Shown here: piece after piece, positions 9,001 through 12,000 of the stretch | How positions within the stretch are numbered: the first letter of the stretch is position 1 | Layout: every line of letters begins with the position of its first letter | Virus record (IMG/VR): IMGVR_UViG_2718218100_000006 | Direction: 5' to 3' (one strand) | DNA length: 48,504 nucleotides | Source of the DNA: a virus | Lineage: Duplodnaviria > Heunggongvirae > Uroviricota > Caudoviricetes | Program-made: the position numbers

Positions 9001-12000
9001 TTGATAACAAACTGCCGATTAGGGGGGCGATGATTGACCCCGATCCGTCAGTATTAAAACCTGATCCGTCAGATAAAAGATCTTCTTGTCCGGACGCTTC
9101 GCAACCGGACCCGCAGACGGCTGAACAGAATTTTTTAACCCGACACCCTGACGCGGTTGTGTTCAGTGCGAAAAAACGCCAGTGGGGAAGTCAGGAAGAT
9201 TTGGTGTGCGCACAGTGGATCTGGGGACGAATCGTGAGTCTTTACGAGCAGGCGGCCAGCGATGATGGCGAGATCACGAGACCGAAAGAACCCAACTGGA
9301 CTGCATGGGCCAATGACGTGCGGACAATGCGGATGCTGGATGGCAGAACTCACAGACAAATTTGTGAAATGTTTGGGCGTCTCCAGCGGGATTCGTTCTG
9401 GGTAAAAAACATCATGAGTCCGGCAAAACTCCGGGAAAAATGGGATGAACTGGTTATCCGCCTGGGGCGTTCGCCCGCGCAGCGTTGCGTGAATCACATT
9501 TCTGAACCGGACACTGAAATACCGCCGGGATTCAGGGGGTGACGTGTCATGAAAAACATTGCGGCAGTTGGGGTTCTTGAACGTATTCGCAGACTTGCAC
9601 CACAGGGGGCGGTTCCACCGTACCGGACGGTGGAGGAGTGGCGGGAATGGCAACTTGCTGAAGGACGAAAACGCAGCGAGGAGATTAACCGCCTGAATCA
9701 TCAGGTGCGGGTTGAAAAAATCCTGAACCGTGCGGGCATCCAGCCGCTTCACAGGAAGTGCTCATTCGGGAACTACCGGGTGCAGAACGACGGTCAGCGC
9801 CATGCTCTGAGCCAGGCGAAATCCATTGCCGATGAATTGATGACCGGATGTACAAACTTCGTGTTCAGCGGTAAACCTGGTACCGGTAAAAATCACCTGG
9901 CAGCAGCGATTGGCAATCGGCTGATGGCGAAGGGGAGAAGCGTGATTATCGTCACCGTGTCCGATGTCATGAGCGTGTTGCATGACGGCTACGACAACGG
10001 CCAGTCCGGGGAAAAATTTTTACAGGAGCTTTGTGGAGTTGACCTTCTGGTCCTTGATGAAATTGGCATGCAGCGGGATACGCGCAACGAGCAGGTCACG
10101 CTGAACCAGATAGTCGACCGCAGAACGGCTTCGATGCGTAGTGTCGGAATGCTGACGAACCTGAATCACGCAGCGATGAGCACACTCCTCGGAGATCGGG
10201 TGATGGACCGTATGACCATGAATGGTGGTCGTTGGGTGAATTTTAACTGGGAGAGCTGGCGGTCAAACGTTGGACGTCAGGGTATGTGAGAATTTTTGAC
10301 GAGGTAAATTTTCGATGGAAACTGTATTGCATGCACTGAAAGCGATGGGAAAAGCCAATTCTGTTGAACTGGCGGCGCGGCTTGATATCAGCCGTGAAGA
10401 AGTTCTTAACGAACTGTGGGAACTCAAAAAAATGGCGTTGTTGATAAAACGGGTCACACCTGGTTTCTGGCTGTCGAAGGTGAAGCCGGGGTAACCGAAG
10501 GGCAGGCACTACAACCTGAAGCGCCGGATGTGGTAACCGAAGAGGTCGCTCCAAAAGTTACCGCAGACATGATGGTTGAGTTTATCGGTCAGGATGGTGC
10601 TAAAACGTGTGAGGAACTGGCGGGTAAGTTCGGCGTCAGTACTCGCAAGGTTGCTTCCACGCTGGCGGTGGTAACCGCAACGGGGCGGCTGGCACGCGTT
10701 AATCAGAACGGTAAATTTCGTTACTGCATGTCGGGGGGTAATTTACCAGCAGATCCGAAAGCCGCGCCGGTAACGAAAAATGATGGTAAGGCCTTTCCTC
10801 AGCCAGCAGGTGCTGCGTTACCAGTCCGGGAAGCCGCAACACAGGAAGAAATTAAAACAGAAACTGTGGCGGACATTGTGCAGCCGTTGCCATCGTTTAC
10901 CGAAACGCAAGCAGATGAGCTGATTTTTCCGTCCCTGCGCAGGGCAAACCTGGCGCTGCGCAGGGCGAAAAGTGATGTTCAGAAGTGGGAGCGAGTCTGC
11001 GCCGCGCTGCGGGAGCTGAACAAGCACCGGGATATTGTTCGACAGATTACTGATTCTTCCCGCCGTGTTGTATCGGAAAAGTGATAGCCGGAGGCGCTTA
11101 TGGCGAAACCTTTTACACACGAACAGCGTGAAGAACTGAAGGCCCGAATTATCGGGCTGGTACGCAAAAATGAACGCATGACGATATCACAACTGGAGAG
11201 AGCGACGGGAGCAGGCTGGCATTCAGTCAGACGTTGCCTTGTGGATGTACTGGCTTGTGGCGATTTATACATGCCCGGTAAATACGGTGTTTTTACATCA
11301 GAACAGGTGTATCGCGTATGGCGTAAGGCAGCGGAGAAAGCAACCGACCAGACATTGATTCGAAAGTTACCAGACGGAGAAATACGCCGCTACGACAGAC
11401 AACAGAACATAATCTGTGGCGAGTGCCGGAAGAGTGAAGTTATGCTGCGTGTACTGGCGTTCTATCAGGGCAATTTTCAGGAGGCGGTACTGTGAGTGAA
11501 TTAGCTATCAGGCTTCAATTGTCGCTGGCATTCGCATCAAAGGAGAATGAGATGACCACTTTTACAAAAGAGCAGTTAATCAGTCATGTTAGTGAAAATG
11601 TAAAGGCGATGAAATTTGCAGTAAAACAGACAGCATTCAAAAATTCTCTCGAGGCAATTGAGTTGGATTTAGCACTGGCCCTTGTTGCTCAGGCTTCGCT
11701 GGAAGCAGAGCCCGTGCTTTATATGAATCGATTTACCGGAAAGACATTCTCACTGGAAGAGCAACCCGGTGCTGATAAGGAACCGGAAATATACGTGCCG
11801 CTATATGCTGCCCCGCCAGACAGCGCCGCCATGCTTCAGGCTGGAAACTTTCGGGAAAAAAAGGGTTCGTCAACCAATAATTTTCGGGAAATCTCGGAAA
11901 CGTCAACCAACTATCCGGTAACTCTGGATGATTGGATAAGCTGTAGTGAGCGAATGCCGGATGATGGTCAGCACGTAATTATTTTATGTGATGGCGCATT

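Follow-up and report, generated by a model that had tools for sequence, protein, structure and literature searches.

A poly-A frameshift in a DUF1627/YdaW-family gene of the defective prophage Sp12 of Escherichia coli O157:H7

The split DUF1627 gene

The viral record IMGVR_UViG_2718218100_000006 from IMG/VR (48,504 nucleotides, the whole of which is called the window in the following) represents the defective lambdoid prophage Sp12 (CP-933P) of Escherichia coli O157:H7. At 10315-11084 it carries a gene of the DUF1627/YdaW family whose reading frame is interrupted at a run of seven adenines (A7; runs of other lengths are named in the same way). The gene and its parts are arranged as follows:

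10315..11084, forward strand: DUF1627/YdaW-family gene, frameshifted pseudogene of 770 nt; the intact form has 771 nt and encodes 256 amino acids
10315..10494, forward strand: first open reading frame (ORF1), 59 amino acids, consisting of 39 native residues and a 20-residue out-of-frame tail and covering helices 1-3 of the first winged helix
10416..11084, forward strand: second open reading frame (ORF2), 222 amino acids from a GTG start, taken from the ORF list and the annotation of strain Sakai, where it is ECs_2274
10426..10432, forward strand: A7 tract, site of the one-base deletion; the ancestral A8 encodes K38-K39-N40 (AAA AAA AAT)

As read directly from the sequence, the tract consists of exactly seven adenines flanked by CTC and TGG. 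Both ORFs overlap across this run, and the frame of ORF2 is -1 relative to that of ORF1. The first-pass annotation had proposed that one added A would join the two ORFs into a protein of about 257 amino acids; insertion of one A indeed results in a single ORF of 771 nt and thus in one fused protein, the length of which is 256 amino acids. The native frame of ORF2 begins at N40 (10431) and comprises the wing of the first domain, the second winged helix, a linker, and the C-terminal helix. Relatives of the protein are unbroken and have 240-260 amino acids, and the single ORF of about 250 amino acids that characterizes the DUF1627 family is divided here into portions of 59 and 222 amino acids.

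The pseudogene status of the gene is already known from public annotation. The entry of the Prokaryotic Genome Annotation Pipeline (PGAP) for strain EDL933 at coordinates matching 10315-11084 reads 'DUF1627 domain-containing protein, frameshifted', and the older annotation of strain Sakai holds only the 222-amino acid ORF. A literature search for ECs2274 found no paper in which it is mentioned. A promoter and terminator scan of 8000-12500 revealed nothing beyond chance around the gene, and an Rfam scan of 8000-17000 revealed no RNA family overlapping it.

Ancestral A8 and derived A7

The phages PhiR5_2, Shigella 75/02 Stx, and phiSTEC1589 encode intact homologues, all of them 771 nt long and with A8 aligned to the A7 of the window. 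A search for the A8 version, which covered 5,426 complete E. coli genomes, led to alleles that are otherwise identical over 902/902 nt in the O55:H7 strains DEC5B and DEC5E, in the O157:H7 strains LSU61, F3113, and PV15-279, and in strain JNE132847. DEC5B, LSU61, F3113, and PV15-279 carry the gene in the same prophage and between the same neighbours, and its annotated product is the intact WP_000450876.1. Compared with the alleles encoding this protein, the Sp12 gene has zero substitutions, but one A is missing and the frame is broken after codon 39. An intact orthologue is therefore present at the same locus in close relatives, from which the Sp12 gene differs by the indel alone. Strain LSU-61 has been described as a presumed intermediate between the O55:H7 and O157 branches (PMC7175801).

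In a census of the segment, 675 genomes were found to hold it, with the exact 90-nt A7 version in 286 complete genomes and the exact A8 version in 164. The queries had lengths of 90 and 91 nt, at which one gap pushes identity under the 99% band; exact 35-nt megablast queries on the run were dropped, as masking by the low-complexity filter was probable. A7 is thus inherited clonally and reproduced in 286 independently assembled complete genomes, and within the sampled rows of genomes with the A7 segment every one with a serotype label is O157. Exact scans of IMG/VR for the tract with its flanks retrieved 17 contigs with A7, 112 with A8, and none with A6 or A9. Most of the A7 contigs carry the Sp12 allele of O157:H7, and one A8 contig (L093) carries a gene with 0 substitutions relative to the one in the window. 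Within the Sp12 allele, A8 is confined to O55:H7 and early-branching O157:H7.

A8 is the ancestral state; A7 arose from it and has become fixed in typical O157:H7. This pattern emerged from the comparison of tract lengths across related genomes that had been suggested as a check in the first-pass annotation. Splitting of homologues at the same point, which had been named there, together with independent reads of 7 A, as what would refute the proposal, is not found outside the O157:H7 clone. Since A7 is confirmed in independent assemblies and homologues outside this clone are unsplit, the gene is a lineage-specific pseudogene.

Recurrence of A7 on other alleles

A7 is also found on other allele backgrounds. 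The A7 allele L012 is 2 substitutions away from an A8 allele and 174 away from the nearest A7, and the A7 alleles L021/L018 are identical to an A8 allele except for the tract, while a further A7 contig (L022) is probably a recombinant carrying the Sp12 haplotype around the tract. Among complete genomes, the L021-type A7 is present only in 2014C-3338, in which the gene is likewise flagged as 'frameshifted'. Deletions thus recur in this run or, in draft sequences, it is occasionally miscalled; the events occur sporadically and in one direction only. In many alleles, the run is broken at a protein-neutral K/R position (ELKRNG or ELKRKG, with KRN or KRK at codons 38-40), and distant members of the family have unrelated residues at this position, so that the homopolymer itself is not conserved.

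Substitutions on A7 alleles were inspected for relaxed selection, and they came as blocks of paralogue-type polymorphism. In the A7 alleles L006, L011, L014, L016, and L019, the block changes relative to the window are S140P, G142D, D147E, P152L, K155E, and N156S, residues that form the consensus in paralogous alleles. The pattern suggests that DUF1627 copies carried by different prophages have undergone gene conversion, rather than new mutation.

Family and predicted fold of the intact protein

ORF2 matches the Pfam family DUF1627 (PF07789) over profile positions 1-155 of 155 with an E-value of 6e-100 and 332 bits, compared with a cut-off of 28.1. The repaired 256-amino acid protein has additional weak matches to helix-turn-helix (HTH) profiles within its first 55 residues, and HTH matches in an NCBIfam search were all sub-threshold. 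In PHROGs, a near-identical intact protein (P0002) matches phrog_630 with an E-value of 2.8e-132, an entry without assigned function. The DUF1627/YdaW proteins gp17 of phage 75/02 Stx (YP_009226849.1), WP_000450876.1, and YdaW of the Rac prophage share family, position, and repaired length with the Sp12 protein. YdaW of strain K-12 is also incomplete; the published comparison gives only that it is shorter than the O55:H7 form (PMC9308461).

Another PHROGs entry, phrog_16668, is a 59-amino acid profile that matches the ORF1 fragment from end to end, including the 20 out-of-frame residues, with an E-value of 1.4e-40. This entry appears to be built on pseudogene fragments, and phrog_11856 likewise looks like a C-terminal piece.

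A search of 1.84 billion representative sequences resulted in 173 clusters at an E-value of at most 0.001, about 40 of which are full-length (220-267 amino acids, 20-50% identity). In an alignment of 38 diverse members, four parts are conserved: the N-terminal domain, whose wing contains an invariant Trp, a second domain resembling it, an 'IPSFT'-like motif, and a C-terminal helix with the pattern EIRRTK...L..LE..R. The same 38 sequences were used for structure prediction with AlphaFold2, replacing an earlier run with 25 close homologues that had reached a predicted local distance difference test score (pLDDT) of 50. Residues 1-55 were predicted with pLDDT >90 as three helices (H4-11, H16-23, and H27-39) followed by a beta-hairpin, and the A-run codes for K38-K39-N40 at the end of the recognition helix of this domain. 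Two further elements were predicted with high confidence, and the linkers between the domains were predicted to be disordered:

10554..10733, forward strand: second winged-helix domain, residues 81-140, pLDDT 91-94, same topology as domain 1 (H84-94, H99-106, H110-123, E127-131, E134-138)
10935..11075, forward strand: conserved long C-terminal helix, residues 208-254, pLDDT 92-97, conserved across the 38 members

Two winged-helix-like halves had been recognized in the first-pass annotation, and this description is borne out by the predictions and by profile comparisons. Alignment of domain 1 with domain 2 by hhalign gave a probability of 95% and an E-value of 3.7e-8, and a profile search of the PDB with domain 2 gave matches to AspA, Z-alpha, and ArsR/MarR proteins with E-values of 5e-4 to 1e-2. 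Foldseek retrieved ESCRT-II, ScpB, and SelB as tandem matches and single winged helices with root-mean-square deviations of 1.2-2.7 Å over 55-65 residues. The intact protein is accordingly modelled as a tandem winged-helix fold made up of two related copies, and it is most likely DNA-binding and probably oligomeric. Both N-terminal domains share their fold with ScpB, ESCRT-II, the C-terminal domains of SelB, ArsR, MarR, Z-alpha, and AspA. In contrast to these proteins, the DUF1627 protein has a different C-terminal helix, and the likeness is at the level of the fold only (E-values of 6e-4 to 1e-2, 10-23% identity) and implies no functional link.

A literature search on DUF1627 yielded passing mentions only. 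YdaW of the Rac prophage is listed as a predicted transcription factor without known function (PMC9308461), and it has been reported as one of the prophage genes that blocked the retron-Sen2 toxin on overexpression (bioRxiv 10.1101/2020.06.22.160242).

The host prophage

The 901 nt around the gene are identical (901/901) to those of the O157:H7 strains Sakai, EDL933, TW14359, EC4115, and Xuzhou21, and at least 60 complete O157:H7 genomes were listed with this sequence. In the Sakai annotation the region is designated 'prophage Sp12, lambda-like phage'; it adjoins ynfA, and its integrase is pseudogenised. CP-933P is the homologue of Sp12 (PMC8630535). Integrase and repressor of Sp12 are disrupted; the prophage had been predicted not to excise, and it neither excised nor replicated nor was packaged (PMC2669165, Asadulghani et al. 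2009). The DUF1627 lesion resembles what has been described for the 'defective prophage pool' of O157:H7 (PMC2669165) in that a point lesion is found in a non-excising, non-replicating, and non-packaging prophage with further lesions. It differs in that the published survey scores functional modules without listing the DUF1627 gene and counts O and P of Sp12 as apparently intact.

The DUF1627 gene is accompanied by the following genes, the first two of which lie upstream in the same operon:

8580-9542, forward strand: gene for an O-like HTH protein, annotated in Sakai and EDL933
9549-10289, forward strand: gene for a DnaC-like helicase loader, annotated in Sakai and EDL933
11100..11495, forward strand: DUF977/Ren-like gene, conserved downstream neighbour, matching phrog_142 with an E-value of 1.7e-43

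The same order, in which O-like and P/DnaC-like genes precede the DUF1627 gene and a DUF977/Ren-like gene follows it, is found in phages and in another O157 prophage. The DUF1627 gene is thus a conserved early-operon gene of the early-right replication module and not a cargo gene, as it had been classified in the first-pass annotation. A different prophage of O157:H7 strain TR01 contains an intact paralogue with A8, and at least one intact copy is likewise retained outside Sp12, in a different prophage, by O157:H7 genomes.

Each sub-lineage of the Sp12-type prophage carries its own set of lesions. Internal stops are found in DnaC and Q in DEC5B and in DUF551 in LSU61, and the SASA/DUF6645 esterase is frameshifted in the prophage copies of F3113 (L141) and PV15-279 (L142). 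In PV15-279, there are also insertion sequence elements in the exonuclease/integrase region.

A companion lesion in tciA

The first-pass annotation had further pointed out that a TerB-like gene in the window is broken at a 7-A tract as well, and such a tract does split tciA:

15947..16379, forward strand: tciA, a member of the TerB family and site of the second poly-A lesion (A7 at 15965-15971, compared with A6 in intact homologues)

The gene starts with ATG at 15947, and A7 shifts the frame after 8 codons, by which the start is parted from the TerB frame. In phage JLK-2012 and PPyecE, tciA is intact and has A6, reading MFGIFGKKARRAA... at this point. The change from A6 to A7 is a +1 insertion, and because the same A7 is present in O55:H7 DEC5B and in LSU61, it is older than the deletion in the DUF1627 gene. 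The two lesions are independent indels of opposite sign and different age and represent ordinary prophage decay. Runs of at least seven A or T are common in the window, with 35 matches compared with 15.4 +/- 5.1 in dinucleotide shuffles, none of 100 of which reached 35. Single-base indels in homopolymer runs are the usual route to frameshifted genes, and two such lesions in a decaying prophage are therefore unremarkable.

Annotation of tciA varies among genomes. It is annotated as intact in Sakai (annotation as in RefSeq) and in EDL933 (PGAP), with a 142-amino acid product from an overlapping TTG at 15951, and PGAP calls it 'internal stop' in DEC5B, LSU61, F3113, and PV15-279. Between a tRNA-Arg gene and the start of tciA there is a poly-G tract (15853-15864) with G12 in the window, G13 in Sakai, G14 in EDL933, G10 in O55:H7 DEC5B, and G6 in LSU61; either this tract is genuinely hypervariable or the assemblies disagree. 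Three tRNA genes are located at 15523-15769, and in the A8-bearing O157:H7 strains F3113 and PV15-279 no such trio is annotated between Q and TerB. Above the gathering score, Rfam identified the sok antitoxin RNA of hok/sok at 12433-12607 (116.9 bits) and the small RNA STnc100 at 16548-16720 (101.8 bits), the latter directly after the tciA-tciB pair.

Interpretation of the split gene

The split gene is very probably the result of ordinary pseudogenisation, in which a single deletion from A8 to A7 in a defective prophage became fixed during the emergence of typical O157:H7. The A was lost from the A8 run in the lineage from which this group arose, most likely by replication slippage. Translation from the native ATG now ends after 59 codons, and the wing of domain 1 together with all downstream parts would need an internal start or a slip to be produced. 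The gene is a recent pseudogene whose sole difference from its intact ancestor is one base, and from this arrangement we infer that the A7 allele has lost its function. Regarding the slippage-prone tracts that had been considered in the first-pass annotation, the tracts do carry real replication-slippage mutations, but there is no evidence that they are used for expression or switching. Some points weigh against simple pseudogenisation. Small amounts of the full-length protein, or a fragment initiated internally, may still be made from the A7 allele, and the Sakai annotation treats the 222-amino acid ORF as the ordinary gene ECs_2274. Moreover, A7 is found on at least two further allele backgrounds (L012; L021/L018 with 2014C-3338), so that the tract is a recurrent indel site. 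Taken alone, this would fit a switch too, although the cases on other backgrounds are sporadic and some of them may be assembly errors.

A sequencing or assembly artefact, in which the true tract would be A8 and the gene intact, was the first of the explanations offered for the broken genes of the window. Homopolymer miscalls are common on some platforms, and the single A7 on another background in 2014C-3338 as well as those in some draft-derived IMG/VR contigs could be of this kind, but for the Sp12 gene an artefact can practically be dismissed. The identical A7 segment was obtained by many laboratories, the genomes including Sakai, EDL933, TW14359, EC4115, and Xuzhou21, and the same collection contains A8 at the orthologous locus of O55:H7 and early O157:H7, so that the state tracks ancestry and not platform. 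Since it follows descent, systematic homopolymer error is disposed of; in addition, one of the two lesions in the window is a loss (A8 to A7) and the other a gain (A6 to A7), and a systematic caller bias would not produce both. A real but reversible change, in which slipped-strand mispairing would turn a phase-variable contingency locus off (A7) and on (A8), would agree with the appearance of A7 on at least three allele backgrounds and with its presence in about 13% of the tract-bearing IMG/VR contigs. Such a locus is nonetheless highly improbable, as A7 is concentrated in the Sp12 allele and in O157 and is stably inherited in O157:H7, while A8 in this allele does not extend beyond O55:H7 and early-branching O157:H7. 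Furthermore, tracts of A6 and A9 are missing from IMG/VR, only one complete genome has A7 on the second haplotype, and with 7-8 A the run is shorter than would be expected of a phase switch operating at high frequency.

The remaining explanations assume that the A7 allele is translated beyond the lesion. In E. coli, slippage is known to occur on poly-A runs and with tRNA-Lys (Baranov et al. 2005, PMC1088944), a downstream hairpin can be drawn, and a -1 slip of tRNA-Lys in the ribosomal P-site on AAA at 10429-10431 would give exactly the wild-type ...LKKNGVV. The locus also shares a poly-A run at the junction of overlapping ORFs, the second of which is in the -1 frame, with sites of programmed -1 frameshifting or transcriptional slippage such as dnaX (A AAA AAG) and the 9A sites of insertion sequences. 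In contrast to these sites, the Sp12 run has 7 nt in a non-canonical register and lacks a significant stimulator, and its relatives are in frame. Recoding by -1 ribosomal frameshifting or transcriptional insertion of an A, which would result in the 59-amino acid and full-length products in a set ratio, is therefore very unlikely. The in-frame A8 is ancestral and prevails in the family, and no out-of-frame arrangement is conserved among homologues. The zero frame CTC AAA AAA ATG provides the heptamer C AAA AAA with a P-site mismatch, which allows only a single-tRNA slip. The best downstream fold starts 19 nt after the run, compared with a criterion of 5-9 nt, and has a z-score of -1.87, with 10 of 200 shuffles folding as well. 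The run is also under the criterion of about 9 A/T for transcriptional slippage, the length at which both productive slippage and selection against slippage have been documented in many genomes (PMC1088944). A merely leaky A7 allele, from which a small fraction of exact wild-type protein would arise by a -1 slip of tRNA-Lys or by stuttering of RNA polymerase, is very unlikely as well. Expression of ORF2 as a truncated protein with the second winged helix and the C-terminal helix, 222 amino acids long or shorter when started at Met-86/87, is unlikely. ORF2 is open to the native stop and identical to the ancestor, it is a gene in the Sakai annotation, and its position in the operon implies transcription with the operon. 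However, reading of the upstream sequence revealed no convincing Shine-Dalgarno sequence ahead of GTG 10416 or of the internal ATGs, and ribosomes translating ORF1 pass this GTG by 76 nt and stop at 10494, which leaves a long distance to the next in-frame ATG. That ORF2 has stayed open is expected because the lesion is recent, and the literature search found no expression data.

Implications for O157:H7 and the DUF1627 family

The homopolymer frameshifts in the window are true and phylogenetically informative mutations rather than assembly noise, and the change from A8 to A7 marks the point at which typical O157:H7 parted from O55:H7 and early O157:H7. The biological weight of the lesion is small, and its main use lies in annotation housekeeping: ECs_2274 represents the tail of a pseudogene, and phrog_16668 appears to represent its frameshifted N-terminal fragment. 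Should the A7 allele be leaky after all, typical O157:H7 would have turned a prophage DNA-binding protein down, not off. For the DUF1627 family as a whole, the predicted architecture of a tandem winged helix with a conserved C-terminal helix may serve as a starting point for finding its function.

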